This document shows, piece after piece, positions 241-49,875 of a DNA stretch of 50,111 nt. Positions within the stretch are counted from its first letter, which is position 1. Each line of letters opens with the position of its first letter. The stretch covers positions 1-50,111 of the forward strand of contig JYFJ02002830.1 in NCBI GenBank assembly GCA_000934665.2. The letters are read 5' to 3'. This DNA is from Catajapyx aquilonaris (taxonomy: Eukaryota). The position numbers and the translations under genes are program-made. A model generated the notes under the pieces. It searched no databases and was not told where the DNA came from. It saw only the letters and a list, made by a program, of their open reading frames with translations.

Positions 241-277
241 TACCTTAATTTGCTGTTTCACTTTAGCATTGTGCTAT

Positions 278-1430
278 TTTATCTGAAATAATTCCAGAGC
301 ATCGACTGCTTGCTTAGATTCTATGCAATTACACCACACATGAGTATGAATTGAAAACCTGTGTCTGTATTGTCGGTTCATATGTTTCTATATGCCCGCT
401 ACAATACTTTTCCATGATTAGTGAGTGCCTTACCTGCTGCTGGGGCACAACCTCTGCAAAATTTCGAGTCAGACGTACCCAGCAGCAGTTATAAGTAATA
501 ATTATGCAGATTCTACAATCTTATCCGAGGTGGCGCGAGTTGTGATTTTGGCTTCGTGCTTGGTGGATCACCAGGTGAAGCATCTCTACCTTAAAAACAG
601 CTAGAGTCATTGTGGCTCTTGCCCATGTTGACGTGTGTCTGCAAAATTTATGTCGGTGTGTTTATAAACATCTAGTCCCATTTGCTATGATAAGCAGTAG
701 GAAAAATCTTCCTGATGTCGGATTCTACTGGATCGCTTGCACACGTGAGCCATCAAATATACGTCCATGTCGCACGTATTTATAGATTTATACGGAGGTG
801 GTTGCTCAAGTGCACGCCGTGGTTGTGTAGGACACTTGTGCGTTGTCCTGCTTCCTAAGAGCTGTTATTGTCACACTATTTCGCTGATGCTTGTTGTTGG
901 GAGGTTGAGCTGGGATGTCTGGTCCAGCGTCAGCTTCTTTCTATCTCATGCCCCATTTTTACTGACATTCGTGTGTGCTCGCAGGACATACGTATTTTAC
1001 CTTGCAAACGATTGTTGTACTGTAAGCAATGGTCGGAACAGTTTCATTCTATGCTCACACCATTCATCTCATCAGAGGAACAATCAATGGCATATTGAGA
1101 GAGTGAAATTCATTCTAGTCTAAATGTTCTCTATTCCAAAATCGCAGGACATACGTATTTTACCTTGCAAACGATTGTTGTACTGTAAGCAATGGTCGGA
1201 ACAGTTTCATTCTATGCTCACACCATTCATCTCATCAGATGAGGAACAATCAATGGAATATTGAGAGGGTGAAATTCCTTCTAGTCTGAATGTTCTCTAT
1301 TCCATAATCTCTATATACATGGCAGTATATAGTCGTCGGTTCATCATCGTCTGACTGTGTGCTGGAGTTTCATTGTTGGATATTTTCTTACTGTTCACGA
1401 GCATTGACGAGATGCGGGTTACACTTGATG
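278..1430. repeat. Block A, copy 1 of a segmental duplication (copy 2 at 22352-23336)
   Basis: Colinear, high-identity match starting tttatctgaaataattccagagc and ending gggttacacttgatg in both places. Confidence 0.95.
979..1303. repeat. Tandem duplication of a ~163-bp unit (979-1138 / 1142-1303)
   Basis: tcgcaggacatacgtattttacc...gttctctattcca occurs twice head-to-tail. The paralog near 23050-23215 has a single unit. Confidence 0.95.
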
Positions 1431-1934
1431 ACTAATGTAATGTTATCTTCCCAGTTATCTTGTCGCAACTTTAGTTTATAAAGAACAGTTTTGGGCTTAT
1501 TTTGTTGCTGCTTCGTGTTCAATTTTTTAAATGTATGGCAGAAGCCCTTGTTGGCTGATACCTGGTACCTGAACTGGGCCTGGCACTCACTTACGTCCGC
1601 CAGAGTTGCTGTCAGTGTACTACAGGCGAAACATTTCGTACGGCAAATGTGATGATAGCGAATCAATAGAAATAAATTTTATTAAATCCTTATGGACCAA
1701 GCAGGCCCCCTGAGAGTGACCACGTCATTGTTTTATAACATTATCGTGTATAAAGCACTATTAGTGGGACCAAGTCGCACATTTTGAACACTGTGTGGCT
1801 AATTTGGGCACACCGTTGCATACACCGCAGTGCATTTGCTCGATGAGATAGATAAACACGTCATGGTTGGCGCATTGCTGCCTGATATGTTTTCTGAACA
1901 CGTTGTTTATCCTGCCCATGTCAGTTTCCGTCAT

Positions 1935-2530
1935 TACGGTCATGGACCATCAGCTTATGTGTCTGATCGCTTGAGTGGACTGGAGTTATTCATGGTGACT
2001 CCAGGCCTTTTTTCGTCTTCCTGTGACATTTGACAGAATAAAATTATTGTCCATGCTCCTCACTTGAAGTCTGTTGAGTTGTTAAGGTGGACCAGGAACA
2101 TTGAAATTATCTCATGCCCGGAGACGCACATGACAACATACTGTCATAAACCACTGACTATAAATGGGTCATGGGATTTATTTATGATGGACATTGTCCT
2201 TTCCTCTTTGCCAGATCTGGTGTCTGCATGGCTATAATGTGAGTATTTGCATTCATTTCAACTGGTCGCGGACAGACCGAACAACAATGTACTACCGACA
2301 TTTTGGAAGGCCGAAAGAATTCGGCGCATTGTCTCCTCTACTGAAGTATTACAGGCGGAAACGCAGCACCTAAAATCAGGGTAATGGGTATTATTTCCGT
2401 TTTAATTATATTGCCCGACATATATTCCTTGTAAATGGCAAAGGTGGCTCGAGAAATGTGTTGCTTTAACAGTTTAACGCATTGGTTTGGTAGTGTGACG
2501 ACTAATGTCAAAATGCGAGTCGGGAACGGC
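1935..2530 (-). pseudogene. Decayed coding fragment of unknown, probably viral protein (family C; homologs 25650-26160, 2640-2690, 29430-29560)
   Basis: Minus-strand peptides TFAIYKEYMSGN and SACNTSVEETMRRILSAFQNVGSTLLFGLSAT are conserved between copies with many synonymous changes. Stops and indels are present. Confidence 0.6.
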
Positions 2531-2759
2531 TGTTATTCTGTCCTGTGCATTAAAATCAACAACAGGTGAGGGGTTATTTGCAAAACTTTTTTAAAAAAAT
2601 AAATTTACCCAGAATCCAAGCCGTCGTAATATAAGCTTTATTGCCCGAAATATATTCATTGTATATGGCAAAGGTGATAAGTCGGATACATTTTGGGATT
2701 AATGTCTTTAACTTGGTTCCTGATGACTTTGTACTGATGCGTTGAGAGCTTACAGTCAA

Positions 2760-3200
2760 CCACCAGTGCCAGACAAAGTTTTCCGGTTCGGACTGCAAGA
2801 TGTTGTGGCCCTTTTGATTGCAGTTCCTAGATTAGGAGATCCTAAATTCAGTTATGTGACGACTTCAGCCGAGTCCTCTTTTCCTGCCTGGCGTAGTTTC
2901 ATTGCAAGGACCGTGGATAGCTTTTCTGCACTGGCTGATTCCAGTAAGTTTCCCACCTTTCGTTTCCATGTCTTCACACAGCACTGTTCAAATGCTTTTT
3001 GTGGTGTTCCAGGCCTCACGACGACTCTCCCGCTACCTTCTTGTGAAGAACCGGGTACAGCTCGCATGACAATATCAGGAAATGTGACATATTCCTCGAG
3101 CCAAAGTGATTTTTTTTTTTCAAGAACAGATTTTTTAACTCATGAAATCCACTTAGCCCGCCTTTTAGTGTTCAATGAGACTCTTTCTAAACACGTTGCG
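2760..3200 (-). mobile_element. Transib-like transposase N-terminal fragment (decayed)
   Basis: KW...KKKSLWLEEYVTFP...GTPQKAFEQCCVKTWKRKVGNLLESASAEKLSTVLAMKLRQAGKEDSAEVV...GSP matches the Transib N-terminal pattern GRPxKxFxxxSxRTKRRK...EL..A..MxLRxxG..xA. Confidence 0.65.
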
Positions 3201-3559
3201 TTTTTGTAATAACTAGAGAGGGGTCACTTTTCCATTTAAATCCCGTTGGATTGCTGTGATGTCGCGGCTGAAATGCGGCGGGCGGTAATTCTTAAAATAC
3301 CGCTGTTTCAGCACAACACCCACAATTTAGTGACGTGCCGGCATCAATTTGTACAAGTATTAGTTGCCAATTCCTATATACAAAAAGTAATGCAATAGCA
3401 CGTACACTACTACGTTTATAGTGATCGGCCTGACTATTATCAACTGCTGGGCTTTTGGAGGTGATCTATTGCGGTGATTGTGGTTTGAATAAGTGTGACA
3501 TAATTTTCAGCTTTAATGTTTATGCAGGTTGCTCGGCTTCTTTACCCTTGTGGTACTTA

Positions 3560-3740
3560 CACGTACGTATCTCTATGTGCATTAATTAGCATGTGGGCAG
3601 CACAGTGTCCACATGCTGTGATAATCGGCAGTTCATTACATATTCTGAATCCTTACCCGGTAGTCTTGGAAGCACGAATATGTCATATGCAACTGCCAGT
3701 AGTGCAGATTCCACTGCAATAACTTCCTTGAAGAAGGACT
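3560..3740 (-). pseudogene. Decayed coding fragment, family D (homolog 26540-26690)
   Basis: EVIAVESALLAVAYDIFVLPRLPGKDSEYVMN vs VTAMESAMLEAAxYDIxFVPPLLPGKDSEYVMN. Confidence 0.7.
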
Positions 3741-4589
3741 AACCAGACTATTATGTGCGGGAAAATGTTGCATTCACCATAATTATGAGGTGGTCGCTTT
3801 CTTTTATACGTTTCAATCTTGGATGCTCCCATGGGTTAGGCCGTGTCGTAATATCCCCTCTGGATGACTACATTAGGACTACGAATATCAGGCTCGTTAT
3901 TTGGTGGAGAATCGTAGCCTATTGCTTGAGCACCTCATACAAATAGCCCGACATTCAATATTCGAGCCACGAATGTAATTCCTATGTATGAATGCAAATA
4001 CTCCCATGCTTGGATGGAATATAGTGTTTCTCTCCTTTCTTGAATTGGAGGAATAAGCCTTGTCATATAATGACACTCGAGAGCATTGATGAAGATCTTG
4101 TATTTCCGGCTCAACTACTGTAAAAATGGGTATGTGCACGGAAGAACGCCACAACCTTGGATCGGGATAAATGTGTTTTTCCCTCCCAATGTTGACCTGA
4201 CCTTCACTTACAAGATGAAATGACTGCTTATGAAGAGCTTTCATGACATGCACCTTACAACCGAGGTCTTCAATAATTATTTTGGTATGTGTCTGTCGGT
4301 ATCGTTGCAGTGGCAATATCAACTTCATCATGAAACTCGTGTATCCTGAATGATGACTGGTCCAGTCGATGGACTCCATGATTGCGGAATCAGTATTAGG
4401 TGAAACAATATATTGTGTCATCAGTCTAACTAAATTTCCATCTAATTAGGGTAGAATAATGAGTTCTAAAAATAGCGATACGAAGCAACTTCCTCAGTGT
4501 CAATGCCAAGATAATTATTGTTGAGTCGGCAATTAAGTTCACAATAATAATAATCAGTCGGGAAGGAAACCTTCTGTTTTACCGATACT

Positions 4590-5095
4590 TGCTTGTTCGT
4601 GGAGGGTTTTAATGAGGCAGTTTCTTCCATTGTTGCCCTTCGAGCATTGTTGTCAGAAGTCAGTGTATTATTAGTAGGATATCAAATGGGCAAGGTGGAA
4701 AGTCGAGTGAAAGTTGGCCCGTTTAATTGGTGGGTCACTTTTGCCCCCACTGCACTGGTATCCTTATTTCACTCGGCCTTCTCTCCCTCATAAACCTCAC
4801 TCCACACCCGGCTTTGGATCGCTTCAATATCTGCTTTCGTTACTCTCCCCAGCATCACGGAAAGGTAATTGTCGTACACCAGTTCAAGTGGGCATATGTC
4901 TTTTCCATATTTAGTCTTGTACTCATCGCCTGCGTTTCTCTCCCAAGGAGCAATGGCCTTTCTCTGTGCTGTACCTGTACAACCGCCATACAATGCAGAT
5001 TCTCTCTCTCTCTCCTCTGGTGTTGCACCACACGCTGTCAGTAATACACGGACGTCTGACCGAGACGTGCTGTTAACACATTTGTGCCTGATCAT
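4590..5095 (-). pseudogene. Decayed coding fragment, family E (homologs 21590-22150, 28420-28680, 31575-32035, 34430-34555, 48095-48160)
   Basis: Peptides KAIAPWERN, ELVYDNY/ELVCDNY, NGPT and NNARRATM/NNARRPTM/NTARRPTM/VGRPTM are shared among subsets of the copies. Confidence 0.65.
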
Positions 5096-5407
5096 TTTAC
5101 TTTTCAGGTATTCAGGTTAACACTATAGGGTATTCGTAACTTATGGTCGGATTATTTCGTAGTTATTGGCTGTGTTGTGTCATTATGTTTTCTGATGTGG
5201 CTAATTGATCGGTCGGCCGCAAGTTGCGCTTATCAATGTTACTGCACAACAATAATGCTGAATGTGCACACGAAAGTCACAAAGTTACCACCACCTTTTA
5301 TAAGCATATAGTCACATTCTGGAACGTAGTGGCTGTAGACATGTTGACTTCGAATGGGTGAAATTGATGCGCAGGTCTGCCTACTCGCCACAAGCCTGGT
5401 TATACAC

Positions 5408-6410
5408 TGAAGGTGCATGATGTTTATAGGCAGTATTTACAATACTTCTGCATACATTGTGGCACAGTATTTGTCCATTTACATTTGGTAGAAAATATGC
5501 CGTTCGTTGTATAAACAAGTACAACAAATTCCTGATTTTGATAATACTGTATCGACGAGGTTTTTTTTCCAGTAAAGTAGTTCCTATTGTGCACTCACAA
5601 TAATTATGTCGCTTCACATGATTATGTATACTCGATTCAAATTTTACATGATTAGTGAGTGCCTTAACGGTTCTCTGCAAAATTTGATTGAATTAGACAC
5701 ATACCCTACCGCAGCTATATGTAATAGGTAGTATGCATATTCTATGCCGTCTAATCCGAGGCGGCGCTACAGGGACACCATGTAAATCCTGCAACAAGTA
5801 CAATTTGTTAATAATTCTGTTGTGTATATCCTAGTATTAGAACGCAACTGTGGCTGTATGATACGTTAAATTCTTTTGGAACGCTGTGATTTTGGCTTCA
5901 TGCTTGGTACGTAGATCTCCAGGTTAAACCACGTATCTTCCTTAAAACTGCTCGAGTTGTTGGGGCTCCTTCACGTGATGACGTGTGTCTGCACATGTCA
6001 GTTTGATGGCCTCTTTGTGTCATTTCTTTAGTTTATTTGAAAGCTTGACCCACCTTAGTCACTTCTCTTTCCACTGGGAGGTCCTCAGTATTTCTTTTCT
6101 TCTGCGTTAACAACCTGAATACGTGGAACACACGTCTTCATTTACGAGTAGTTGTTTTTTTTTGCCAAGCGATATGCATATAATAAGGATGTTCGAGAAA
6201 GCAATAACTTCGCACTGTCCGAGATTTGGCGCATTTGGGTGGTAGTTATCAGTGGGAATACTTGCGATGCTAGGACAGGTGGCAAGTAGAGCTTGCGCAG
6301 GCTACGTCTCCTCCGCCTCTCTGTCTATCTGTCGTATCTCTTCATTCTTAGAAATAGAAATCGCCAGGAAAGTATACCAGAGCAGGCACAAGATTTTGTA
6401 CACTTTGACG
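5408..6410 (-). pseudogene. Block B: long decayed reading frame of unknown protein; copy 2 at 23340-24622, older homolog inside block A (410-650)
   Basis: Frame ...EMTQRGHQTDMCRHTSSREGAPTTRAVLRKIRGLTWRSTKHEAKITAFQK...APPRIRRHRICI...VKALTNHVKFESSIHNHVKRHNYCECTIGTTLLEK has few disablements. STKHEAKIT, APPRIR and KALTNH recur in all four homologs. Confidence 0.65.
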
Positions 6411-6699
6411 TGTTTGTGTCAGGGAGAGTACCTCCCAAAAATCTAGAAGCACATTGTTCCCACTGGAGCAGAGGGCTTTTCCCACAGGAAAAAACAGTCC
6501 CAAGAAGGTTTTCTTTGCCCCTAAAAATGGGTAATTAATTAAATTTCTAGGAGACATGTTAACCTTTTTATTAGACTACATTAACTTATTAGTATGTCGC
6601 CGATAAGCTGCGGGCAAATTATTTTCCTGCTCCACGCTACGCGACTCCGAGGCGACTTGTATGTCTTCGGAAAGTAGATTCTCGGGTTGGAAAATAATG

Positions 6700-6860
6700 T
6701 AGACATTCTGCTGCGACATTACTCTCAAGAAAGACATTGCGTGTGTCATAATTTGCTTGTTGTCTTGGCCTGTCCTAGTTTAGGTCCTCGGGCGACTTAT
6801 CAGGGGACGACGGACGATGGCACAGATGTGGTCCTCGTCTCTCTGTGTGCGCACTTCCCT
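6700..6860. repeat. Dispersed diverged repeat family H (also 8270-8410 and 43020-43100)
   Basis: Shared gctgcgaca and tggcc(t/a)gtc segments in all three; ctctgtg(tg)cgcac in the first two. Confidence 0.65.
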
Positions 6861-7439
6861 TGTAGGTGCGGTGGTGGCAAACACGGGTTGTCTAGTGTCG
6901 ACACGTTCTGCTAATCACCAGTTCATTGCGTCGGACTTGTTCACAGATTGAAATGGAAGAGGCATGTGCTACGATCATGTTGATCATTTGTTTGCCACGT
7001 ACTGCATCGAACCTGTTATTACAAGTGGAATTCAGTAGTAAAGCAGCATTTTACAGCACGATATTGTGGGTGCATATTAACTGAAAATTAAGGTTAATAA
7101 CTTACGCACTTACTAATTTAGCACATGTGTTTCTGCGGGTAAAGTTTTTCTTTCCATCTTCGGTTTTGTGGGGATGGGAGCTTCAAAAGGCGGAATAAAT
7201 CCAATTGCACTCCTCTTCAAGAGGTACCGCACTTGTTGTTTACACTAAAGGCCTTCAAATTGCGAGGTTACTGTGGAGTAATATTGTTTTTCACTGGAAA
7301 ATGTGACCTGGGAATGTATGAAGATGTCGAGAGTTCTATTCTGACATTATATTGACACAATATGATATATCCACATAATATTATATCATGTACGATGTGT
7401 TTGTTGCAGCCTCAGTCAGTGTCACCTCGGATCTATTTC

Positions 7440-7710
7440 ATATTGAAGTCGGTGTCTTTTGGAGGGCCAAAGTGACTGGTCAAGAGGGACCAGACATCTG
7501 GTCATGTCTTCCTTCCACATCACAATTTGAGGTTCCTCTCTTTGTCGTAGTTTTCTGGCCCGAATCCAGAATCATGCATGAGAATGAGTGCCAGTGTAGA
7601 TAGATTTTAGAAATGTTGTATATTTGGGCTAGTAAGAAGGTAATCGTGATAACAGGTGTATTGTAGTCCCTACGTTCGTTTTCCCTATCTCCGGGGAGAG
7701 CGGCTGAATA
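7440..7710 (-). pseudogene. Possible toti-like (Ghabrivirales) RdRp fragment, motif F to motif A
   Basis: One frame with two stops: SPEIGKTNV...FLKSIYTG...QIVMWKEDMTRCLVPLDQS. It resembles KxExGKxR followed roughly 65-70 aa later by P(L/I)DQSxFD of giardiavirus/IMNV-type RdRps. Confidence 0.4.
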
Positions 7711-7725
7711 TGGAAAACGACAGCA

Positions 7726-7956
7726 CCCATTACTACGTAGGTGGAGCCTGAGCGGCTCCAAGGTGGGACATGTTCCTCGTTACGAATTTTTTTCAGCCAA
7801 AGAATGGCGACTAAAATTTTCTTTTCTTCTTTCCATTCTTAGGAAGGTTTTTGTGACAAAGTCACGGAAGGAGAGGGGGAAAAAAATTTAATTAAAAGGT
7901 TACATGCGTTTAAATAGTGCTTGGAGCTTCTCAGGCTCCACCTACGTAGTTAAGGG
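7726..7956. mobile_element. ~230-bp MITE with piggyBac-like CCC...GGG terminal inverted repeats
   Basis: cccattactacgtaggtggagcctgagcggctccaag at the left is the near reverse complement of cttggagcttctcaggctccacctacgtagttaaggg at the right. A TTAA target duplication is not preserved. Confidence 0.7.
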
Positions 7957-9865
7957 TTTACGTTGGGAAATTGAGAACATCAATTCTGGCAGGTTGTCTA
8001 GCCTGGGTAATTACAATTACAGGTTCAATTCCGGGTTGAAACTACAGGGTCTTCATGCATTCCGGCAGTGTTACCTACATACAATTTATCAATCGGCAAT
8101 AACGGTGACTTTTGCTATGTTCACCAAAACTGCTCAACACTTAATTCTTATAAATGTGAAGAGATTACGAACCCAATAAATGCCAATCGATATCCTGGTT
8201 GTAATATGTATTCCTAATCTTTTGTGTGATTTCAAGAGGGGATACCCAGGTTGAAATAATATATTGTAGTCATTCCGCTAGCTGCGACATGACTCGCAAT
8301 AAAGACACTGCATTTTCTTGTCGTTTTGGCCTGTCATCGGTTAGGTCCTGGTTAGGTCCTCTGGAGACGATTGGACAGAAGTGGCCCTCGCCTCTCTGTG
8401 CGCACATTGATTATTTCAAGCTAACTTACTGCTCGAATTCAGATGTTAACGAGCATAATACGATGTACTGCATAATACTGAATATAATATTTGCGTTACT
8501 TCCCATTCAGACCCTACTCCTTCAAACTACTTACAACAGTAAGTAGTGTTTTATTTTGAAGAGAAAAAAAAAATACTATACGTCTTTCTAGACTGGCAGG
8601 TTAGTCTCCTGTCCTCACATGGCCATGTTGCCGGAGATGACGACCACCTGCCTGGCCGACATTCATGAGCTCACTGGCTTCATTGTTTTATCTATGCCAT
8701 CCTGCTATAGATGGAGTGCTATGTGTGGCCTCACTGCAGTCTATTAATGACCCTTACGTGGATATTTCAGCATCCAGGGCGACCTTTGTGAAACAAACAC
8801 AAATTCACACTGATCACTGATTTTTTTACTGTCAGGTCATATGGCAATCAGATTGCAACTTACTTTCTCTTCTAGCCGGTCAATGTACTGTTGTAAAGGA
8901 CTTGTGTATGCCTCATTCAGTCTGTCAATCTTGACTTGCCCGCTAGTGAGCATTAATTATGGAACCCTGCCCGTTCATTGTCTATGTGAAATTCGCGTGT
9001 CCGTTTCAGGAGGCCCCTAATGTATGAAGAAATTACGTCGTGAAACTGATATATTTTTGACTTTCTACTTATTGCAATTTGCAGACGCAAATAATTCTCC
9101 GAGTGTGTTTGTAGATTTGCATGTAATTTATTGCCTTCAAGTTTCTCTCCCGTGCCCCGCTGGCTGCCGTTAAATCATGGTGCACATAATCATGGACAGT
9201 CTTTCTTCACAGATGACTGTCGAGGGAAGCATGCCACAAGACATGCTTCTCTGAGTATTAGATGACCATTGATCACCACGAGTCTTTCCTGGAGCACCTT
9301 CTTGTGTACGAACTGGAATGATGTGTAGAGGTGAACCTCTTCGCATGGTATCTTGTGGCAGAAGGTATATTTCTTTCGTTTCGTTATTCCTCTTTGGGAT
9401 GTGACCAAGATGAGAGTCGTCGTCTTGGTGCTTTACTCTTTGGCAGGTTCATATCCCCTGTTGAGTTGCGAAAAAAAAACTATTTTTTATGTTCTTGAAT
9501 ACTGTATGTTGGTGGTGCTCTTCCACATGAGAAATTCCTCTTGGCTGTTGGTCAGTGTATTCCAGGTGGTTCGCTGCTGCACCCCACTTTCGGCAACGTA
9601 ACCCCACCTGCAACCTGGGTACGTACCGTAACTTACTGCAGCATGTACACTTAGCAAAATTGTGACAAGGGGCATACAATACCCTAAGAGTTGCGAACTG
9701 GTCCAAAATCAAGCTGAACGACGCAATCACTGAAGGACACGCACAAAAAAAAACGGCGTCCAAAATGCTGACACAATGTGATACGTCCCCCTAGTCAGTC
9801 GTCTGTTTGGATCAGTTCTGGGGCGTGATGCATCTAGAAGGGGTCAATACACACCAGTGTTTGCC

Positions 9866-10125
9866 CTAATCTTTCATGGTCTGGACTCTCTGCAATATTT
9901 TTCCCCTGACGATTGCCAATATTGCTCTTGTTAAAAGGCCCTTCTGCCTTTCTTTTTCCGGAAAGAATGTCGTTGGATATAAGTGTAATAGGCCATTCCT
10001 ACAAGCAGCTGACAGCAATGCGTCGCATAATGCATTAAGCTTCTTGTCATTGAGAAGCAATTTACTTTTACCATTTCCATGACGTATATGTCCCTCGTCA
10101 CTTTTAGCAAAAGTTGTGGGCAACT
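9866..10125 (-). mobile_element. Possible decayed Academ-type protein fragment
   Basis: PTTFAKSDEGHIRHGNGKSKLL...Y...KERQKG loosely resembles the PxSL..xGxxRxxxKSxL...YxxxSxKxxERxxR region of AcademX proteins. Confidence 0.3.
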
Positions 10126-10544
10126 GTCATTGTCTATATTGCTCTAACGATCAGCTGAGTCTGGAGGGAGAGTCGATCTCTCTTCTTACCTTTGGCAACC
10201 GACAGACAACGCTGTATTTTATTGATGCGTAAGGAACTTGCAGTGTCACGTCGGAGGCTGGGGCGGGGGCTATGGTTAGGTACTGGAACTTTTATTGTGT
10301 TTCTATGCAGGAAGATAATCTTGCGCTGGAAGGTGGGAAGAGATTGCAGCAGTGTGTCGTTTTATGTGGATACCTGTGGACGTGAGTTGCGAATGGCGAA
10401 CTACAAAATGACTCGTCTATGCTGCCGATGATGGGGATTATTTCCGCCTGGTTGTATAGATGAATCTTTATCCATTGCTTTCGAGACTGTCTTCCGTGGC
10501 CTGGTGGCTGCCAACAGGATGTTCTTTGGACTTGCATTGTGTCA

Positions 10545-10981
10545 AGGTGACCCGAATTCAGGTGGGTCACATTCGCCACATGGATGCAATATGTGGAGAT
10601 GTGGGCCACATCCTATTAATAGACTCCCAAATATTTTTCATGGTATAATCGTTTCGTGATTACTTTTAATAAGCCTCACATTCAATAAACACTGATGCTA
10701 CACTCTTACCATGTATTTTAATTAATCTACAAGAGCGCTATTATGTTGTTGCGATATTATTGGTCACTGGCTAACTATAGGGAGGAGAAGCAGCCAAGTT
10801 CTGTGTAATGGTAGCACTATAGAAATACCAAAAAGTCAGCAGACCCGTCGTGTGACTTGATACCGATGCTGCAGCTTTCGGCTCGCATCATTTGCAGTGA
10901 CAAAAATGAGTAATTCTGCATTGCTAGATATTTTGGTGTGTAATAGTATTTTAGCACAACTTGTCCACCCCTGTCTCCTAC
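10545..10981. repeat. Block F, copy 1 of a near-identical ~437-bp duplication (copy 2 at 20743-21179; older homolog ~26920-27030)
   Basis: aggtgacccgaattcagg...cccctgtctcctac is nearly identical in both copies. Minus-strand peptides GGQVVLKY and ESCSIG are shared with the older homolog. Confidence 0.95.
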
Positions 10982-11029
10982 CGTACATAATCCACCGTAC
11001 ATAATCGCATAATCGCATAATACATGATT

Positions 11030-12494
11030 CACCCATCAGCTTATTCTCTGCCTGCGCAAGAAATGCCTTCCATACTATACTCCGGTTGTGACACTGTGTC
11101 ATATTTCTCAGGAAAGGGCAAGAACTCTGCATTCAGGTCATGGAGAGCGTCTGGGGAATAAGCCACTGAAGCATTTCAAGCTATCGGGACTACTGACAAA
11201 CTGTCTGCAAATAGCCTACCATTCATGCACTAGAACATTTTACTGCGATTATGTACGGTGGAAAGTGCTGGTCAGGCTGGTCAGGTGTGGGGCAGGTCTC
11301 TTCATCTTTCATGGAGATCCTCCTCCGGATCCTTCGTCATCGGGGTGGACCTTACAATCAAGTGGATGGGAGCCCATATGGACCACACTCCCAAGCATTT
11401 GGGAGTCATGCAGAGCACTAGATATGTGCAAATGCAGGACAGCATGCCAAACCCTTCGGTGCCCCCGCCATGCAGCTCAGCTGCTTTGCACACCTGGCTG
11501 CAAGAACTGCAAGGGTGAATGTTCAAACAAAAGGTAGGAACGTACGTTTATCTATTGACACAGTCATGGCAATAAAAACTGCGGATTAAATAATGATTTA
11601 TTGTTCCAGGACTCATGAAAAGGAAAATCAAGCCTTCTCCAGGGGACACATGAATATAAAGCNATTACGAGGTAGTAGTTTTCCTGTACCTCATATTGAA
11701 CACGCGCCTCACAAGGATAGGGTAAAATCGAAAAAATACCTCATAAAGACAGTAAAAATATATTTCACCAAAATATCGTGTGTTTCCTTGTAGGTTAGGT
11801 TGGTTATGTTAGTTTAGTTTTAAATTTTACATTTTGGAAAAACCTCACAAGGATAGTGTGGGTGTGGGTGTTTGTGTTTATTATAAGGTGAATTAAATTT
11901 AATTTAAGGAGATTAAATTCCTTCAAACAACTTTTGCTGATGTCACATTTAGCCTCAAAATGCCAAGAGTAGTCGGAAATAAATGCCATACCCAAGAAGT
12001 TTTTATTTCGAGGCAGCACAGACCTCTCCCAATTTGCAGTAGGCCTAAGTTTTTTAAATGCTGTCGATGGAGCCGTAATGGTAGATTGGATCCATTTCAC
12101 GATGGTTGATTTAGTTTCAGAAGCACGTAATTTCACATAAACGACACCTTACACAACTAAATAAGATTGTTTTCAAATTTTCCCGCCATTTTGGAAAATC
12201 GGCCGCCATCTTGGATCTAAGGGTTAAAAAAGATGGCGCTACGGGGGAAATCGGTCCTTGGTGTGTAGACAATATTCCTACAAAGTGGCTTGCCGTTATA
12301 GTAATTTGCCGCTTTTTTACAGAATTTTTTACGTTTTTTGAAAACCGGCCGCCATCTTGGGTCCTAAGGGACGAAAAAGATGGCGCCACGGGCAAAATCG
12401 CTTATTTTGGTCTTAACTACAATCCTGCAAAGCGGCTTGCTTTTATCACGATTTGCCGCTTTTTAATGGAATCTCGAACGTACCGCCCCCACTA
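11030..12494 (+). mobile_element. 3' part of an AcademX DNA transposon: XPG-like and Cys-rich C-terminus plus right terminus
   Basis: SGCDTVSYFSGKGKNSAFRSW (from 11081) and PPDPSSSGW...WEPIWTTLP...CKCRTAC...C...LLCTPGCKNCKGECSN* (stop 11535-11537). Two ~146-bp subterminal units contain ggccgccatcttgg. The terminus ...gtaccgcccccaCTA fits Academ TAG...CTA ends. Confidence 0.85.
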
Positions 12495-36189: not shown

Positions 36190-36425
36190 TGATATTTATT
36201 TTTCAAAATATTTACTAATTCTTCGTTTGATTTTTGACGTTCACGTTTCCTTCAGTTTAGGCAGCGAAAGTCCCTCGTCTTCTTCTTGATCATAGGTTGC
36301 ACAGGATGGGGAGCCTCGTCGGTAGTGATCAACGGGATGTGAACCCTGAGATGAAATTATGGTGTGCAGGAAGGACCGATATTAATTGTTGTTCATCAGC
36401 CACAGACGGATCTTATCATGCTGAT
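36190..36425. repeat. Dispersed diverged repeat family K (homolog ~49620-49875)
   Basis: Shared ggatgtgaaccct...tgcaggaaggaccgatattaat...tgttgttcatcagccacagacgga. Minus peptide LISVLPAxxxFIxGFTS. Confidence 0.85.
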
Positions 36426-36599
36426 ATAAGCCTATATACTATAGGAAATGCGTATGTCCTACATATTTACGTAATAAATATATACCGTATGGGAAAATAA
36501 AATTCGGTGAATTAAGTGCAACGTATTGTTCTTGCTCTGATGGTCACTTATTAAAATGCTACATGGCGAATAATTACGCGATCAATTAACCGAGATTGC

Positions 36600-38618: not shown

Positions 38619-38930
38619 TACAGACTGATATTAACATGAGCTTATTTCAGTTGGCATCCAAAAATTTCCTCACATGAATAGGATGTATTAAAATTTCAAA
38701 ATTACTGCCTGGATTCACCCATGAGCTCATGATGCTATAGTTATTCCACTCAGATTGATGACACAAGTTAAGGGAGGTTATTAATTAACCACACTCTGAT
38801 CAGATATATTAATGCACCACTGTACATTTTATATCACGAACAGAAGTAACCCACAGAATGAATTGTTTAAATTATTTACATCTGGCATACAGCTAGGAAA
38901 GCAGTTTTTCATGGCCATAAAATTCCTTAC

Positions 38931-39100
38931 CTGAACCGGCAGATTAATCTTCTCTTCGATAACAGCCAATCGGTTGTCAGTTTCAGTTATGAATCTGGAC
39001 AAGTTAGCGTTCGTTCTTTCCTGATCTTCGTAGATCTTCCGTATCCAGTTAACGACATCATTTATTGTGTCCATGTTGCTTATTGGAGCCACAATTTCAC
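38931..39100 (-). other. Isolated open exon-like segment encoding a coiled-coil-like peptide
   Basis: Acceptor ctctttacag| and donor CAG|gtaagg flank 170 nt with open frame EIVAPISNMDTINDVVNWIRKIYEDQERTNANLSRFITETDNRLAVIEEKINLPVQ. Confidence 0.65.
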
Positions 39101-42100
39101 CTGTAAAGAGTAATCCTTGATGATACTTGCCTCAGCTTACACAGGGTGCTATATTTAAAAAAATTGGATTTAATGGGACTATGATCGCTCTGCAATTTAT
39201 GGATGCAAATTATTATTATTGGCAACAAAAATTTTCTATCAAAGCTTGAGGAATTGGAACCCATGGCAGAGAGGTGCCAATCACCACAACTGATGACCCA
39301 TGATGCATGTCGGACCCTTTACTCTACACCACTAAGAAAGCTTGTTTGCGTGAATGGAAAAGGTATTACTAGCTCAAGTTTTCTTACTAGTAGTAATCAG
39401 ATGTTAAGAAGCATATTTAAAGTCACAAACATGAGTAGAGATTGGTTCATTTGGAAACTGCAAGGAATATAATTATTTCTTCCAGAGTTTCAATGTGAAA
39501 CGTGGCGTTGTTGCTTCTTTCGTCTGCTTCAGCCTATATGCTCCCTCGAGAAACTTTCTGCTTATCCCTCCTTATTCGTGCACGTCCTCACATGAACGTG
39601 TTGACAGTGGCATTATCCATTTTATGTTACCTGCCATGAATCATTATATCGCATATACTGGTGTCCACATCTTCTCATCGCATCCAAGTACGGCAGGTAT
39701 GATGTTGCGCCATGTCACTTCGTCGTCTTGTAGGATTCATGATGCGCACCCTGCTATGCATTTTAATCGAGAGAGGTCACCCGATCCTATTGTTGAAATT
39801 TCATATCACCTGGAATGGTGCCATTATTAGATGGGAGGTCTGCGTGTGCAACTGTTGGTCTCGTGCGCCTGTTGCTTCTGGCCACAATGGAGAGTTGTTG
39901 GGGGGGGAACTTCCTACTCCATTATTTTGTGAGTCTCGCCCATCTGAACCGGAGATGGGATTTTGGGCGTGCAATAGTCCGTCTTGCTCTACGTGAAGGC
40001 AGCTCCTCGTGACCTATCCCTTCAGAGACCCAAGTTGCCATCCATTGTTGGATAGTGCATTAATTCGGGGCATTTTTTGGACAGTTCCTGGTAACACTTG
40101 GCTGGCGATCATGTGGGAATTTTTATCAAAATGGCAGTAATATTACTACGATATAATGGAATTTACGCGTATGTTTAATTTTTCTGTAACAAAACCCCTT
40201 TAGACATTGGTAAGAATTAGCGGGAAAAAAGGGGTGCTGTTTAATGCACTAGTCTCACTACCTATAATTAGAAGTGACGCCTTTTACTTCTTCACATGTG
40301 CTATGGGGGATTTTTTCGTCTCTTCCTTCCTCCACTTCTTCCTTGTATGGTGCAAGTGACATTAATGAAACTTTTTAATATTCCAGCGAGAGTTGACAGT
40401 TGTTGGACGTCTGCATCCCAATAATTGGGCTGATGAAATAATCGAGAGTGCGAATGAAAACCGGCCTTTTTGTACACTTATATACCAGGGTTTTTTCCCC
40501 TGTCCTGGTCGGAATGGAAGACGTATCTCTGTCTGGAAGGATTTCCTCGCTGACCCCCTTGCAGCACCTTGTCATTGCTGAGGATTTGCCTGAAACCTTG
40601 GGTTAACTGTTTGGAAAAAGGACAAGGTCCTTTGCGATATTCCAAGTCCTCTTTCTCCGGGTTCCAGTGTCGCACTTCAATTGAGTAATGGCCATTATGG
40701 ACGTGAGCATTGCCTGGAGACTCTCAATATATGTGCGCATTATTCAAACGTTTTAATGCACGTTTTAATTGCAAATGGCAGTCATAATGTGACGTCGAAA
40801 TTTCTCATCGGCTTGGTTGCTCTCTCTTCCTTTACTTGCTCTGTGTCTCACTGTGTTTCTTGTACAAGTAAATTGGAGGTATATTAGCGGCAATGTATTG
40901 TAATAGAGCGTAAAATGACACGAAGTAGACTGATGCCCCATGTTCTGAATGTATAGTGAGTGGTCCAGTGTTGAGATGGTGAAGCACTTTGCAAATAATA
41001 TCGAAGGGATCCAAGCAATGCGACCAGTGCTGTATCAAATATTTTTCATCGCTGCTCCGCTCCATATCGGTCCTGCCGTCGGATTTTTTGAAATTACATC
41101 CTTCAAGCAGGGTAATTTCTTCGGGACATGTTTGGTTTCAAACCCATTCTGTTCCTTTTCGAGTATTGATTTCTCCCTCTCCACCCTGTCTGAAATAACA
41201 TTTTTTTTCTCTCATAAGTTCCCATGCTTATTTCCTGATCACTATCTCGATGGTGGATCGAAGATTGCCACCAATAATAATAAGCGGTGTTATCATGACC
41301 GTGCAACAAATTAATCAGCTGTTCAGTAATAAGTTTGTTTTCAAACCGTCATGGAAGATTCTGGGCGACAATTGACATTGGAAGTTGGTTTTGTGAGATA
41401 CCCCCTTTTTACTAGGAGGTGAAGGTGATATAACGATACTCCGTTGAGAGAGCATTTGGGATGCTGGCCCGGAAGAAGACATGTGCTGTCCTTTCTTGTC
41501 CAGTACTGCTAACAATTATTCTTAATGTTGGGTCATTTGAAGGGCTCATCCTGCTGCTTAAATATCTCATGGTGGTCTGGCAACAGTGCATTTCGCTGCG
41601 TCTGTGTCACACTTGTCTCCAGGGCAGCAGCGACTGACAATAGGCCAACTTGTAATGTAAATGTGCTTTTTTGCTGAACGTTGGTCTGCCCCTGCCACAA
41701 CAATTAGGCGCCTATGCTGCCTGTTCAGCAGACAAGGACAAAAATACTTCCGCACACCTTCTCTCAATGCTAAATGTGCAGATCCTTCATATCTCCTTCA
41801 TGCCGTAAGACGCACTAAGAACATCTTTTTCCTCCCTTCAGCACTGGCTTCATCTTGTTGGCCAACTCTTTATTCAGTGTAAATGTATTAATATTGGAAG
41901 TGCTGTACTATGTGGAAAATGGACACAGACAATTACTTCTTCGGGAAGAGAAGGTGCGGGAACCCTGCAGGGTATTCCACGAAATATTAGGTAAGAAACT
42001 GAAACTAGATGGACTTGATATAGTCCGGTCGTGCTCTCTCCCTTTTCTGTCCTTGCCTCACTATCGTCGTATTGCTGGGTGGAATGACCTTCTCATCATA

Positions 42101-45018
42101 GTAGGTTCTCTTGTAGTACAGAAGTATTCGTCGTGTCCTTTTTGACACTGCCGTCGTGTAGATCATAACATGTGAGGCATCATTCTCTGCATTTTAATTG
42201 AGATTGATCACTCGACAGCTGTTGGAATGTTGTATCACTTTGAATGGTGGCATTATTAGATGAGAGTGAGACATTAACTAGTCCATGTTGAGGTCACGAC
42301 CCTTCCTGTTTATAGTGCCACATTTTCAAGAGGTTGTGGGGGGATTATCGTCACTTACGACGACTTTCCCCACCGTCTCGCCTTTAGTGTCGTGACGATA
42401 TAAAGTCGAGTTTTATTTATTTTTTAATGATATTGTGGTATGTGTTGCATCTACCGTTAGCATTAAGAAGACATCCCAATACTGTATAGGTTAGGATTTC
42501 TCGCGCGAAAACATTGATAATCTCAATGTCATAGCCCTATGGTAAGATTCCCAAATCGAATTGCAAAAAATTCGTCTCCTTCTTTCTGGACCTTCCAGAA
42601 CCAGCATGTGCTCGTCAAAATGCCCTCCTGCCTTTCCTTAATCGGATTGATTGTTGTTGCAGTGTCAGTCATGCTCTGATAGTCTCATTCCTCATGAGCC
42701 AAGGAGTGCTTAGTCACAAGATTCGTCAGTCACATGTGAAAATGTTTCCTTCTTCCTATTAAAATACTGTGAAATTGAATGAATATTTGAATATGAAAAC
42801 CTTTGATGTGAAATCCTCCGAGGTGTCAAACTGCGACCAGTAGCAGAGTTTGTGTCACATGTTGTACATTTATAGTCATCATTATTATTTGCTGGTTGCT
42901 TCTTTATTAGTATACATGATTAGTCGTCACTCGGTTGCTTGGAATGCATGTTTTGTTCTTATGAGTCGCGACAATACCTGTTGTGGTGGTGCCCCATCTT
43001 GTCATGTGCAGGGAAACATGGCATTCTGCTGCGACACTCGTCGTAATGAAGCCGTTTTCTTTGTGTTTTGGCCAGTCGTCGTCCGTCTTCTGGTATGTCT
43101 CTGGGAATTTCTGTTGAAGATTCATGGACACTGGTGCTCCTTGTCTCACCCTGTGCGCCTTACCCTTGGGTGAGTGAGTGAGTGAGGGTCTTTTGGCGCA
43201 ACTCCACAGACATAATTATTGCAACAATTAATTTTTCAGCATCCCTTCTCTGTCAGCACACAACTTGTTCCTTTGAAATACCGCCGTCGTCGCGTCGGAA
43301 CAAGGGAGCCAAAAGAAGGGCGATAAAATAATAATACTGGGAGGGAATTAGTGGGCGCTAAAGGACCATTGAGGCTGAGATGAATCATATGATCTGAAAT
43401 TTTGGTAGTCACATTCTGCCATCTTGTGCAATATTATTTATGGTGTCCTTTACTGTTGGGATTTAACGTGACACCCATAGCTTCTGGATAAATGTTACGA
43501 CTATTTCTCGTCCAGATATTGATTAGGTATAGTTATTAACTCGCAGTAGACGAGTAATAACCTCGTTGGTGAAGGCAAAACTGAGCCATTCTCATTTGGG
43601 ACTGGCGGGCAAAGGTGTAAATATGGCTGTTCTGATAATGTTGTTGTTGTGACACAACAACTGTACCAACGAATATTCAGTGAGAGTTTGCGAGACAGAG
43701 TGAAGAATTATGCAAATTAGTCGACATGCTTGTATCAAGAGGCGTGTACATATATGATGGACCCTGCGACTGTAGCACCTTGCCTTTCATAAGTCCTGCT
43801 ACGGCCATGGTACAATTTGTTCCACATTCAGACAATGCGCCCTCAGTTCGCTACTCAAATGTTTGCATGCATCTTGAGCAGCACTAATTAGGAATGCATA
43901 TGCGACGTATTTTAATATGTCAATATGTATTGTGAACAATATGGCACGGGATGTTAGGGTAATAATTATTTTCACACTAAGTGTGCAAAATTGACTTTTG
44001 AGCACGTATTTAATGTGTTGCTTGAAGTATTGAATGCACTGACCGAATATGAGTAGATTAGTGTGCCCATACTCACAATCATAACAGAATAATATATGCA
44101 ACGGACGTCATTCTCCAACTCACTCATTGCACGGAATGGCTAGTAACTGTCTCAAAAATATTTTCGTCTTTCAATTTTGGCTTGGACGTTTGAAGCTTTC
44201 TCTATAGTCTAGAGTTCTAGACGATGCTTTCACATTAGAGCGTGTAACGTTTCATAATATGCTGCCAACTTAGAGGACCACCGGACTAGAGATGTTGGAG
44301 GGGGGGTGGCAATACACTCGCTCCATCAAGGAGTGGCTTACACAACACTGGGTATCCAATATTACTTGTTTAAAAGTTATTATTAGTGTTTGGGAATTTA
44401 TATCAGGTATCGTGCTTGAGTTCAAGTTTCAGAATTGGGACAGTAGCTTTCTGTCCTTTTTCAGTGTTTGTCAGACTGGATTTGTCTATTCCTCCCTCCT
44501 GTTCACACACACTTCATGCCAATTTTAGTGTCAACAGGCAATTATATTATACAAAAAGTGACCTAGCAGTGTCATGGCTTTATAATTGCAGAGCAGGCAG
44601 TCACTGAGTCCAATTAATTTAATGAAATGTGCACATGCCAGTGGTACTAACGACAACTCCTGTGTGGGGCGGAGGTATGATACAATACATCTATTTGCAA
44701 TACTTAAAATTGCGTTGTGCAAACTCTATGCAGTGTTTCCAGGGCAACAATTCTGCCTGCTTAGGTTCTCTGCAATCACCAGATATCAGTGTGAATAATT
44801 GAAAAAAAGTGCTTCGTGCCGTCTCTCCTCTCTGACACGGCTTGAGCTGTTAAGTGTAATTGTGTAATTGCTTCGATTCATGCTGAAAGGTTGGATTGGT
44901 AGTGTTTGTTTTGTCTCTTCTTTTTGGTGTAGGAGAGAGTGTTTCATATTTAACAGTCTTTACCTTAATGTACTTTTAGTGGAGGATGTTTTGTTCTTTT
45001 TTTGCTGTGTATACGAGA

Positions 45019-45427
45019 ACCATGGCATGTCACTCCGTCCTCCTCTCCCGTTCTCTTTTTTTGAGCCATGGTATGTGGATTAATTTGGCTCAATGTTAAG
45101 TGTCACCGGATGATATTTCGACAGTCGACACTTAACTTAATGGGACATTACATGTGACATGATTTTTAACAAATTGCAGATTACTCTCTGCAAGTCAAAC
45201 CTTATTTAGAGGGGAACTCATCAAGTTATTGGCCAGCAGAGGCAACTCTTGACACTCACTTATTACTGCAATGTTTTTCCAGTTCATTTTGTATGCTATT
45301 CATGGTGTGAGCATAATTAAACAATTGCAGAGAAAGTCGATCCTCGTGTGTAATAGCCTATCAAGTTCCCCCGGTTGAGAGTTTGTCCGTCTGTCTTCAC
45401 ACTTCACCCTCATGTCCTTGTAACCCT
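45019..45427. repeat. Block M, copy 1 of a near-identical ~400-bp duplication (copy 2 at 47092-47492; older homolog ~29090-29200)
   Basis: accatggcatgtcactccg...gtccttgtaaccct in both copies. Minus peptide ISECQxLxxLAN is shared with the older homolog. Confidence 0.95.
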
Positions 45428-46810: not shown

Positions 46811-47065
46811 CTAGTGGCTGCGGGCCGAGGGGCTAACCCCACCCCGCGCCAACAGATGGCGCGCACGGCAGCGTCGCCCGTTTTTGCCCTGAGTGTCCTA
46901 TATTAGCGTAGCGCGTATATAATATTTGCCCTAAGCTAAGTAATCCCCGACATACCTCACTGGCGCCTGCCCCTCTTCCTCCTCTCCTGTTCCTTTTCGT
47001 CTCGGGCCTTGCTTGAAGATGGTGCCCTTGAAGATTTAGTTTTTCGCTCCGAGTGCTCACCACCT
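46811..47065 (-). mobile_element. Helitron-like 3' end
   Basis: Minus strand has a GC-rich hairpin gcggggtggggttagcccctcggcccgc, then agccaCTAG followed by T. Abrupt GC-rich composition relative to flanks. Confidence 0.65.
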
Positions 47066-48484
47066 CCAGCTGCACCAGCTCCACCAGCTCCACCATGGCA
47101 TGTCACTCCGTCCTCCTCCCCCATTCTCTTTTTTTTTGAGCCATGGTATGTGGATTAATTTGGCTCAATGTTAAGTGTCACCGGATGATATTTCGACAGT
47201 CGACACTAACTTAATGGGACATTACATGTGACATGATTTTTAACAAATTGCAGATTACTCTCTGCAAGTCAAACCTTATTTAGAGGGGAACTCATCAAGT
47301 TATTGGCCAGCAGAGGCAGCTCTTGACACTCACTTATGTTTTTCCAGTTCATTTTGTATGCTATTCATGGTGTGAGCATAATTAAACAATTGCAGAGAAA
47401 GTCGATCCTCGTGTGTAATAGCCTATCAAGTTCCCCCGGTTGAGAGTTTGTCCGTCTGTCTTCACACTTCACCCTCATGTCCTTGTAACCCTCCTCCAGT
47501 CTCTTTTATACAGTATAACGCAATGCATCCTGCGTGAGACAGAAATGCAATTCGAATCGGCCCTTCTCTGGCAGTACAAAACTCATTCCTTTCAGATGCC
47601 GGAGTCGGAGCAGCCGAGCCAGAAGGGCTATATGAATAATAACATATCGAGAGAATTCATTATGGGGACAAGGTAGAGCTGAATCAGATAAACATTTTGG
47701 TATGATGGTACTCACGTTCTGCTCTCCTGTGAGACATATCTATGGTGTGCTCTGACACAGTGTGCCTTACTTGGTATTTAAAACCCTTTGTTTCTGGATA
47801 TCTGTTACAGTCAGACTATGTCTCGTCTCGGAAATGCCTCTAATTAATAAATAACTTATTCTCTTCAATTGGAGAGGAGGTGTGTAGTCAAGTTGAAGGG
47901 TCTGATCAGCGCATGTTTTTATTTTGTAACTAAAGCTGGCAATGTGGCCCAGGATTATCGCGACTCTTTATACTGTCACGTCAAGTTCATAATAATGCTT
48001 GATCCCGTCAGAATCCGTTCTGGAATGAGTACCTACTGGTGATGGCTTGAATTCGTCGCTTGAACTTCACCCTTAGGTCATATGGTTTTTATGTGTCCGT
48101 TTCGTCCATTGTTGGACGTCGAGCAGTGTTTTCAGAAACCAGTGTATAATTAATGAGAACCAGTGTTCCGTCCTTCTGCACTTCATTGGCGTCTCTTCGT
48201 GTTGTTCTCCCAGTATGAGGGGATGGCAGCATTTTAAAAACAGTTTTCACTCCAAAACCGTTGGGGAAATGTAAACTGCACTGTTTTGTTCCTGCGCCAA
48301 CAATCCTGGCTTAATCCTCCGTCACCATGCTTCCTGTTGTCAATAATAGGTATTTATGTCAATCGATTTCAAAACTTAATTATTGCATTAAGAAGTTGTG
48401 AGTAAATTATTATGAGTTCATCCATCTTGAGTGCCACTGGTAGAGACACGGGGCGGCAAATTGAGTGTTTTGGGTGCATCTTGT

Positions 48485-48960
48485 TTAATCGTTCTTGAAA
48501 TATGAGAGTATTGGGTCGCATGATTTCGTTCGTTTGGCAACATTAGGGCAACCCTGCCTTGTTAGCGTCTTGTGATGTGCACATCGTATGTAGCAGAGTA
48601 TTTGGAAGCAGTTCAACATCACACAAGTCATGGCATTTACGATATGAGTGCCTAAAATTATTAAGTTTCCGTAATGAAAGAAATCTGTTTGGATATTCAG
48701 ATAATTATTGTTTTTGACGACACGGGCTTGTAGGAGTGACCCGGACATGACCCCTGGTGCAAGGGAAGACCAGTCCGCATGTAGCTTCGTCTTCATCATT
48801 GTAGCTTTGATGTCGCCCGTGCCGTCGTCCATTTCTTCCGCCTTCTTATACGTCTGACTTCATCTGTTGTTGCGTTTCGCAGTATGTTTCAGTTGTGTTT
48901 TGTAATGCTTGACAATATTCCTGCACTTCCCTCGTACTGCTCAGATCAGCCATGGTGGTC
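48485..48960 (-). pseudogene. Decayed coding fragment, family J (homologs 33850-33920 and 34880-34950)
   Basis: VQEYCQAL and KTKLHADWSSL are shared with the homologs. The frame stays open through APGVMSGSLLQARVVKNNNYLNIQTDFFHYGNLIILGTHIVNAM. Confidence 0.6.
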
Positions 48961-49875
48961 GTGGCTGAAGTTAATTTACTCCACTATGTCGTGATGGGTC
49001 AGAAATATGAATCGTCTTAACATGATCGGCACTTTTCTATCCCGCAAGAGTGGGAAAATGCAGGAAGCAAAATTTGATAAGCGCATTTTTGCCATCTGCA
49101 TCATAATAAGCTTGCAATTTTTTGCAGTAGTACAAGTACCCCAATGCAAAACCACACTATAATATCTGGCAAAACGCTTAATTCCACACCCTCGCCACGC
49201 CTCGTGATCATGTGGATGGTTCATTCTCAGTACCCCTGGGGAAGTACTGGCCATCCTCGTACATCATACATGTGGTTGGTCTGACCTCCTCCACGAAGGA
49301 GTGAATCTGGAATGGAGCACGTCGGTGTCCCGGTCAGCAGATAGTTGGACTACACTTCTCATTTGGGAAATGTACGGAGAGCGTGTGTTTATCACGAAGA
49401 CCGAAGAAGAGCAATGAACTTGTTTTGCATAACTATGCCTCTTTCATGTCAGCAAGACTTCTATTAGTAATGACAACTCACATAATCACACATGACAGTG
49501 CCTCCTTGGTAGGAAACATAAATTATTTATCATTATACTTTATGACTATACTGTCTAGTAACAATATCTTTGGTTTGTGCTATTCGAATGTTGTTGGACC
49601 TTTTTTGATGTTTGATACTGCGACCAGGGGTCAACTAGTATTGATTGTTATTCTTCAAAATGCTAATTCTTCTTTTGATGCTTGACGCTCACGTTTCCTT
49701 TAGTTGAAGCAGAGAAAGGCGCTCATCTTTTTATAGACTTTGTGTAGCAGCACTATTGGCAGCGTCGTCGGGCGTCATCAGAATGGATGTGAACCCTCAT
49801 ATAAAATAATTGTATGCAGGAAGGACCGATATTAATAATGTTGTTCATCAGCCACAGACGGATATTTCATTCTAA

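Follow-up and report, generated by a model that had tools for sequence, protein, structure and literature searches.

A strand-polarised block of decayed repeats in 50 kb of Catajapyx aquilonaris DNA, and its likeness to a unistrand piRNA source

The stretch of Catajapyx aquilonaris DNA considered here (contig JYFJ02002830.1 of assembly GCA_000934665.2, positions 1 to 50,111), which was analysed at its full length of 50111 bases and is referred to as the window, has 42% G+C and a single N at position 11663. It is essentially non-coding and made up almost throughout of decayed repeat DNA. This DNA is polarised: within the window, the members of each detectable repeat family point the same way, and the + strand carries an excess of T over nearly its whole length. 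We tentatively read the window as part of a repeat trap of at least 50 kb that would resemble a unistrand cluster of PIWI-interacting RNAs (piRNAs) of the flamenco kind, in which a transcript of the + strand would be the source of guides against the inserted elements. The polarised structure is real and clean; overall, it constitutes a lead and not a discovery.

The orientation of the repeats is the first line of evidence. Comparison of the window with itself by blastn under default scoring yielded 39 pairs, 35 direct and four inverted, where three of the inverted rows are self-palindromes and the remaining one joins two 38-bp copies some 160 bp from each other (7725-7762 / 7920-7957). Under more sensitive settings, 50 pairs were obtained, of which 48 are direct and two inverted, both of the latter overlapping themselves; dispersed inverted repeats were, thus, absent from the sensitive self-comparison of the window. 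The direct pairs of that run include 44 that do not overlap (10209 aligned bp), 37 of which are separated by more than 2 kb. Altogether, the pairs resolve into 48 loci belonging to 17 families, and co-orientation holds within 17 of 17. The repeated share amounts to 13.8 of 50.1 kb, a figure that counts self-repetition inside the window alone and need not equal the true share of transposable elements (TEs). When collinear duplicated blocks are collapsed, about 19 independent comparisons of orientation are left, all of them direct, which under random orientation would have a probability of about 2e-6 (our own arithmetic, not the output of a tool). Base composition cannot account for this bias, because direct and inverted alignments have chance match rates per position, calculated from the base counts, that lie within about 1.5% of each other. 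Furthermore, the copies of a family lie at inconsistent offsets (those of the family F1 at 4.5, 21.5, 31.4, 34.2, 43.2 and 47.5 kb, with F2, F4 and F6 each differing), which looks more like separate insertions than like one tandem array.

Base composition provides the second line of evidence. The + strand contains 12990 A, 16101 T, 10694 G and 10325 C, resulting in an AT skew of -0.107 and a GC skew of +0.018 for the whole window. A negative AT skew is seen in 24 of 25 bins of 2 kb, in 47 of 50 bins of 1 kb and in 91 of 100 bins of 500 bp; the three positive 1-kb bins all fall within 11-14 kb. It is not made by homopolymers, since it persists at -0.098 once A/T runs of five or more bases are removed. 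An excess of T on the + strand is found at 38 of 39 repeat loci, and the repeats taken together are more strongly skewed (-0.145) than the other 36 kb (-0.092). Young copies are already T-rich, strongly in a pair that is 96% identical (about -0.16) and weakly in a pair that is 98% identical (-0.03 to -0.05); in the 96% pair at least, the skew, therefore, arrived with the elements. An earlier note on this DNA had remarked on the T-richness of the + strand, which these counts bear out (T 16101 versus A 12990, AT skew -0.107, 47 of 50 1-kb bins negative). Its broader claim of strand polarity survives in part: it stands as composition and as repeat co-orientation (44 direct pairs, 0 inverted), while the coding relics named on the minus strand could not be verified.

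The features on which the following argument draws are, in order of position:

1-240, + strand: 3' end of a mariner element, comprising the final ~40 transposase codons, the stop codon and terminal sequence.
241-11013: first part of the T-rich co-oriented block, holding block A and copies of several old families.
276-7662: block A, direct and collinear with block B (22350-26279), 92-93% identical over 276-1430 and 80-86% in later pieces.
2727-3206, 24301-24771, 24895-25362, 32855-33316, 33768-34211 and 36719-37138, + strand: examples of long open reading frames (ORFs), 120-169 aa.
3900-4445, - strand: an ORF of 182 aa, the longest on this strand, which a language model scores as protein-like (recognition 3000).
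4504-5042, 21523-22153, 31420-31573, 31580-32029, 34216-34551, 43222-43541 and 47540-48158: repeat family F1, seven loci at about six places (two loci abut), all direct.
10543-11013: young repeat F6, direct, 98.4% identical over 437 bp to 20743-21179, with a weak third copy at 26907-27047.
11014-13450, + strand: the sole long stretch free of T excess (AT skew +0.056), with the P0001-like relic, the N at 11663 and a tandem duplication of 147 bp.
11078-11534, + strand: broken P0001-like fragment, matching residues 146-331 of P0001.
13451-49875: second, larger part of the T-rich co-oriented block, including block B and the C/D pair.
20295-20709: minisatellite of nested 22/44/65-bp units with ACTAGTC/CTCGTCAC motifs, immediately left of the second F6 copy.
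31420-36438 / 47540-49888: old direct pair C / D, roughly collinear, 65-87% identity.
45019-45427: young repeat F7, direct, 96% identical to 47092-47492, AT skew about -0.16.
49876-50111, + strand: sequence past the block, beginning with TCTAATATATATAAAG, followed by a 69-aa + strand ORF; a putative Helitron start according to the earlier note.

Two relics in the window could be oriented by protein homology. A phmmer search of the PDB with the translation of 2-175 (+) returned the Mos1 transposase as its top four matches (E 0.0068-0.018), the alignment covering the final 39 residues of that chain; piece 1-240, of which the last ~37 encoded residues align with the C-terminal end of Mos1, hence has homology to a mariner transposase, with the remainder of the element lying outside the window. 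The second relic, at 11078-11534, corresponds to the C-terminal 186 residues of P0001 (E 5e-26, 68% identity; local tblastn E 4e-42) and is broken by in-frame stops and an internal deletion. P0001 itself is a protein of 333 aa from an unnamed family to which no Pfam family corresponds, with a conserved Cys-rich C-terminal tail of the pattern C-K-C ... C-S-C ... C-T-P-G-C-K-N-C-K-G-E-C. We take this family to be the widespread "uncharacterised protein" of many invertebrate and fish genomes, probably transposon-borne; its N-terminus gives what we presume to be a PIN/XPG-like impression, and an Academ assignment would be tentative. Both calls had been made in the earlier note, which placed a mariner on the + strand, in agreement with the match to the Mos1 C-terminus (E 0.0068), and an AcademX, its putative label for the DNA-transposon-like relic near 11 kb, where the + strand call agrees with the homology to P0001 (E 4e-42). 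Beside the P0001-like relic, within the A-neutral + strand insert, a 147-bp unit is repeated in tandem (12189-12464, +; 1.9 copies, 78% identity), each copy with a near-palindromic GCCGCCATCTTGG ... AAGATGGCGC.

It is exactly at these two relics that the polarity of composition is interrupted. The AT skew is -0.008 in the mariner tail, +0.035 in the P0001-like relic and +0.056 over 11014-13450, compared with -0.112 over 1-11013 and -0.115 in the remainder of the window; the T excess vanishes only at the mariner tail and in the region of the P0001-like relic at 11-13.5 kb. Composition tracks the orientation of individual elements, beyond regional mutational drift alone, because the skew disappears at the two + strand relics, which are the two elements orientable by homology, and because young copies carry the T excess. 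For the rest of the block, the skew pattern suggests, as indirect support, that an A-rich, purine-rich strand lies on the minus side.

This polarity is most simply explained by a filter on orientation that has operated across 50 kb or more, for which a long + strand transcript would be the obvious source. In the favoured mechanism, one long transcript made by RNA polymerase II (Pol II) would run across the block on the + strand. Insertions that place their A-rich sense strand in this transcript would either be lost or would stop it, while antisense insertions would be kept, would decay and would be locally duplicated. The resulting U-rich transcript would then be cut into guides antisense to the elements. 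We infer from this that the remaining repeats would be antisense TE copies, that the + strand would be transcribed and that the transcript would yield piRNAs. The mechanism contains no antiviral role, because no virus-derived piece was found. With respect to a unistrand arrangement, co-orientation is observed, and the antisense sense of the repeats is read only from the richness of the minus strand in A and purines.

How such loci look elsewhere can be drawn from two published accounts. Flam-like clusters are defined by enrichment in long terminal repeat (LTR) elements together with an antisense strand bias, sense insertions being rare near the 5' end (Nat Commun 2023, PMC10643416). Selection is believed to disfavour sense insertions, one reason being the poly(A) signals that they bring (PMC10643416). 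The antisense bias is carried there by Gypsy elements, with other LTR elements showing none (PMC10643416); the two sense DNA transposon relics of the window are, therefore, no clear contradiction. Flam-like loci are further described as having Gypsy-family remnants of LTR elements and endogenous retroviruses (ERVs) in antisense, a discrete promoter and single-strand piRNAs enriched in the soma (PMC10643416). For flamenco, the second account gives transposons that are antisense to a single plus-strand precursor (Genome Res 2021, PMC7919454).

The anatomy of such a cluster, that is, a long co-oriented repeat block and a compositionally polarised strand, is present in the window. Alike are the long block of repeats in one orientation, the apparent rarity of sense pieces, nesting and local duplication; likewise, the strand proposed to be transcribed would be the complement of the elements' A-rich strand. 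Unlike flamenco and the flam-like loci, the window shows no LTR, reverse transcriptase (RT), integrase (IN) or envelope (Env) homology in searches of limited sensitivity, no promoter and no boundary. The block appears to be built like a flamenco-type cluster, yet it cannot be filed as one.

Several findings weigh against reading the window as a unistrand piRNA source. Both relics verified by homology (2 of 2) lie on the + strand, so that they would give sense guides rather than antisense ones. In the T-rich part, no repeat could be shown to be derived from a TE, nor to be antisense to one. The copies of F1, which are 62-78% identical to one another, score alike in all six reading frames (29-48 bits); because the six frames score equally, F1 is either non-coding or neutrally diverged, i.e., it has diverged as DNA. 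An enrichment in Gypsy-family LTR/ERV remnants was not seen in 398 ORFs and four minus-strand read-through frames, searches of limited sensitivity. For poly(A) signals on the + strand, the count is no lower than composition predicts (52 observed versus 48 expected), and a depletion of splice donors on this strand beyond composition was not found either. The window contains neither a promoter nor a boundary of the block, which runs off both ends. Finally, piRNA clusters take up a small share of a genome and introns a large one, and the prior consequently favours an intronic origin.

The ORF statistics point in the same direction. Totals are at the expectation from shuffling on both strands (+ 332 versus 329.5; - 310 versus 309.8), and windows low in stop codons, on either strand, are none better than shuffles of local composition. 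The + strand has an excess of ORFs of at least 120 aa, with 14 present versus 4.65 +/- 2.3 expected and 0 of 60 local-composition shuffles reaching 14. Their translations are rich in Cys, Ser, Phe and Leu, unprotein-like and without a Pfam family; one possibility is that these frames are the antisense shadow left behind by old coding sequence rich in A. On the minus strand, the excess is smaller and restricted to a cut-off of at least 80 aa (43 versus 29.6 +/- 4.7 expected, 0 of 60 shuffles). The longest stop-to-stop frame across the window is 182 aa, and neither strand has an exon-like or domain-bearing ORF over the 50 kb, as judged by Pfam on the ORFs. Scans of the window for tRNAs and Rfam families, in which heads of short interspersed elements were sought, returned none, with (AT)n against mir-297 (E 0.87) as the sole match. 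Alternative genetic codes were tried and set aside, none opening longer frames in a telling way.

Protein searches of the minus strand add to these points. The earlier note had named L-protein-like, toti-like, Gypsy, RTE, long interspersed element (LINE) and Transib relics there; homology to these was not recovered in Pfam, phmmer, PDB, IMG/VR or word-indexed searches of limited sensitivity, the sensitive ones having taken in a few thousand of about 100000 six-frame residues. A Pfam scan of 398 stop-to-stop ORFs of at least 50 aa (E up to 0.01) gave no TE or viral domain (RT, integrase, protease, RNase H, envelope or transposase) in any of the 398. The sub-threshold matches in this set, GRAS (+) and DUF3496 (-) only, were rejected as chance, and a scan of the first 134 ORFs under a relaxed cut-off (E up to 1) returned noise only. 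Pfam on four minus read-through frames, with stops written as X, found 0 families, and on four plus read-through frames only a sub-threshold Transpos_assoc. The minus-strand stretch with the lowest number of stops (7013-10612, a 1200-aa read-through with X) had 0 phmmer matches among 1.84 billion proteins. In the PDB, a 5000-aa minus read-through of 1-15000 had 0 phmmer matches and the three best-looking minus ORFs had no TE or viral match. IMG/VR held no relatives of five of five minus ORFs, the ESM Atlas no usable match for 38832-39131 (-), and a word-indexed protein search of 4772-5116 (-), among near lengths, nothing.

Motif scans were equally unproductive. A regular-expression search for motifs of polymerases, proteases and integrases turned up a single plausible match, VVDSGAT at ~19833 on the minus strand. 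For the ORF region of this DSGA protease-like string, a word-indexed search with 18538-20037 (-) returned no relative from 2217 candidate proteins of greater length, and the PDB gave no match to a protease. Among the polymerase motifs, GDNQ is absent, and the few GDD, SG...T...N, GG.EG and D..KW strings occur on both strands in non-polymerase context. The longest minus-strand ORF (3900-4445) is no statistical outlier, as an ORF of at least 182 aa arises in 17% of shuffles. AlphaFold2 gave it no confident fold (predicted local distance difference test score, pLDDT, 32), and it has no usable relative in the ESM Atlas, no TE or viral match in the PDB and no relative in IMG/VR. The one metagenome match to this ORF, over 34 residues in L001, a contig with long overlapping ORFs, was judged to be chance.

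How much these negatives say can be gauged from two controls. Pfam on read-through + frames of 1-12500 returned 0 families despite the two real relics contained therein, and a 5000-aa + read-through missed Mos1 in the PDB, where a 58-aa query from the same frame finds it. Because both controls failed to recover known relics, scans of this type miss short or off-domain relics. The searches are, hence, weak evidence of absence, and the relics named on the minus strand are unverified rather than absent.

The best-surviving alternative, which we consider doubtful but only slightly less likely than the favoured reading, is that the window belongs to a giant intron or to a long non-coding RNA (lncRNA) of a Pol II gene on the + strand, from which sense retroelements have been purged for their splice and poly(A) signals and to which transcription- and splicing-coupled mutation adds T and G, with no piRNA role. 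Both skew signs, T over A and G over C (AT -0.107, GC +0.018), fit a transcribed sense strand; Touchon and colleagues reportedly described such an excess of T over A and G over C on the sense strand of transcribed regions in 2003-2004. Such introns resemble the window in that T and G are in excess on one strand across tens of kb and that repeats are biased in orientation relative to a transcript, and the 36 kb of non-repeat DNA is T-rich as well (-0.092). Neither would an exon be required within 50 kb in an animal with a large genome, and the prior is better, as introns presumably fill much of such genomes. However, antisense bias in introns is only partial, at ~60-80%, compared with 17 of 17 families here, and the AT skew exceeds the ~5% that we take to be usual for mammalian introns. 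The + strand shows neither an exon-like ORF nor a Pfam domain, and no exon was seen. Moreover, the skew is element-wise: the + strand insert at 11-13.5 kb is without T excess though already broken, so that a regional mutational process does not by itself account for the skew.

Serial local direct duplication of T-rich progenitors, followed by decay, is the second alternative and an unlikely one; it would need neither transcription as a unit nor an orientation filter, the skew being inherited. It finds support in the collinear direct blocks A/B (80-93%) and C/D (65-87%), in the tandem arrays at 979-1309, 12189-12464 and 20295-20709, and in the fact that no repeat is demonstrably a transposable element. 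F6 and F7, too, show neither target-site duplications nor terminal motifs, which is what partial duplication would produce. What it leaves unexplained are the inconsistent family offsets, which misfit a few block duplications, the T-richness of the remainder where only 13.8 of 50.1 kb is detectably repeated, and the skew, for which duplication offers no reason to stop exactly at two + strand transposon relics.

Details of these repeats may be added here. Block A carries about 4 kb (1431-5407) without counterpart in block B. A unit X of ~300 bp occurs in two copies per block, at 371-658 and 5607-6008 in A and at 22448-22738 and 23537-24260 in B. Inside one block, the X copies are ~70% alike, whereas the same copy is ~92% alike between A and B, which makes the duplication of the blocks far more recent than that of X. 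A reading of F6, F7 and the ~300-bp X units as LTR pairs was rejected, given that they lack TG..CA ends and target-site duplications and that the X copies are ~70% alike within a block.

A telomeric head-to-tail array was likewise rejected, with 0 of 11 telomere motifs present. Telomeric retrotransposon arrays (those of HeT-A/TART/TAHRE and of SART/TRAS) share with the window a single orientation and a polarised composition, which there stems from a strongly A-rich sense strand; unlike them, it has no telomere motif and no RT or Gag homology, and it contains many short unrelated families instead of a few long elements.

The comparison with mosquitoes calls for a word on the likely host. Over the whole window, CpG observed/expected is 0.74 and TpG/CpA is 1.23-1.24, and this moderate CpG depletion with raised TpG/CpA suggests germline cytosine methylation in the source organism. 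A CpG value of 0.74 is, we presume, unlike that of a dipteran genome, and the mosquito comparison is, therefore, by analogy only. That the window would be a flamenco-style cluster in an animal that is neither a fly nor a mosquito, with CpG depletion and with elements so old as to have decayed past protein homology, and that it would be recognisable by the total co-orientation of its repeats and a T-rich transcript strand, is a possibility that we put forward with reserve. In Aedes, clusters bearing endogenous viral elements (EVEs) and giving rise to piRNAs were reportedly described by Whitfield and by Palatini in 2017. The Aedes clusters of non-retroviral EVEs (nrEVEs) are recognised by mapped piRNAs and by EVEs whose proteins are clearly homologous to those of flavi-, rhabdo-, chu- and other viruses (PMC7919454). 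The idea of a strand-biased store of past invaders yielding antisense guides is common to those clusters and to our reading; viral homology is clear there, and none was found in this window in a partial six-frame search.

The weakest of the alternatives is the one from which the analysis set out, namely an antisense archive of non-retroviral RNA viruses (L-protein-like, toti-like) and TEs giving antiviral piRNAs in the manner of mosquito nrEVEs, which shares the polarity evidence of co-oriented repeats and AT skew, can point to the protein-like ORF at 3900-4445 (-; recognition 3000) and comes from a note whose two testable + strand calls were correct, so that its relic reading is not worthless, yet which we regard as very improbable in view of 0 viral matches in Pfam, phmmer (1.84 billion proteins), PDB and IMG/VR, at limited coverage and sensitivity, of motif strings without polymerase context and of a CpG observed/expected of 0.74 that we take to be non-dipteran. 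The heritable record of past infections proposed along with it found no backing, viral protein homology being absent from either strand at partial six-frame coverage.

What the polarised block means depends on which reading applies. If it is only an intron or a block built by duplication, it is ordinary, and the viral archive is unsupported by computation either way. As a by-product, no annotation was needed to bring out the polarity, since the ratio of direct to inverted repeats and the AT skew per element revealed it. Should the block be a true piRNA source, it would be a flamenco-like locus outside Drosophila and mosquitoes, in a non-dipteran host, and AT skew per element combined with the direct/inverted repeat ratio could then flag such loci in unannotated genomes without the need for small-RNA data or a repeat library.

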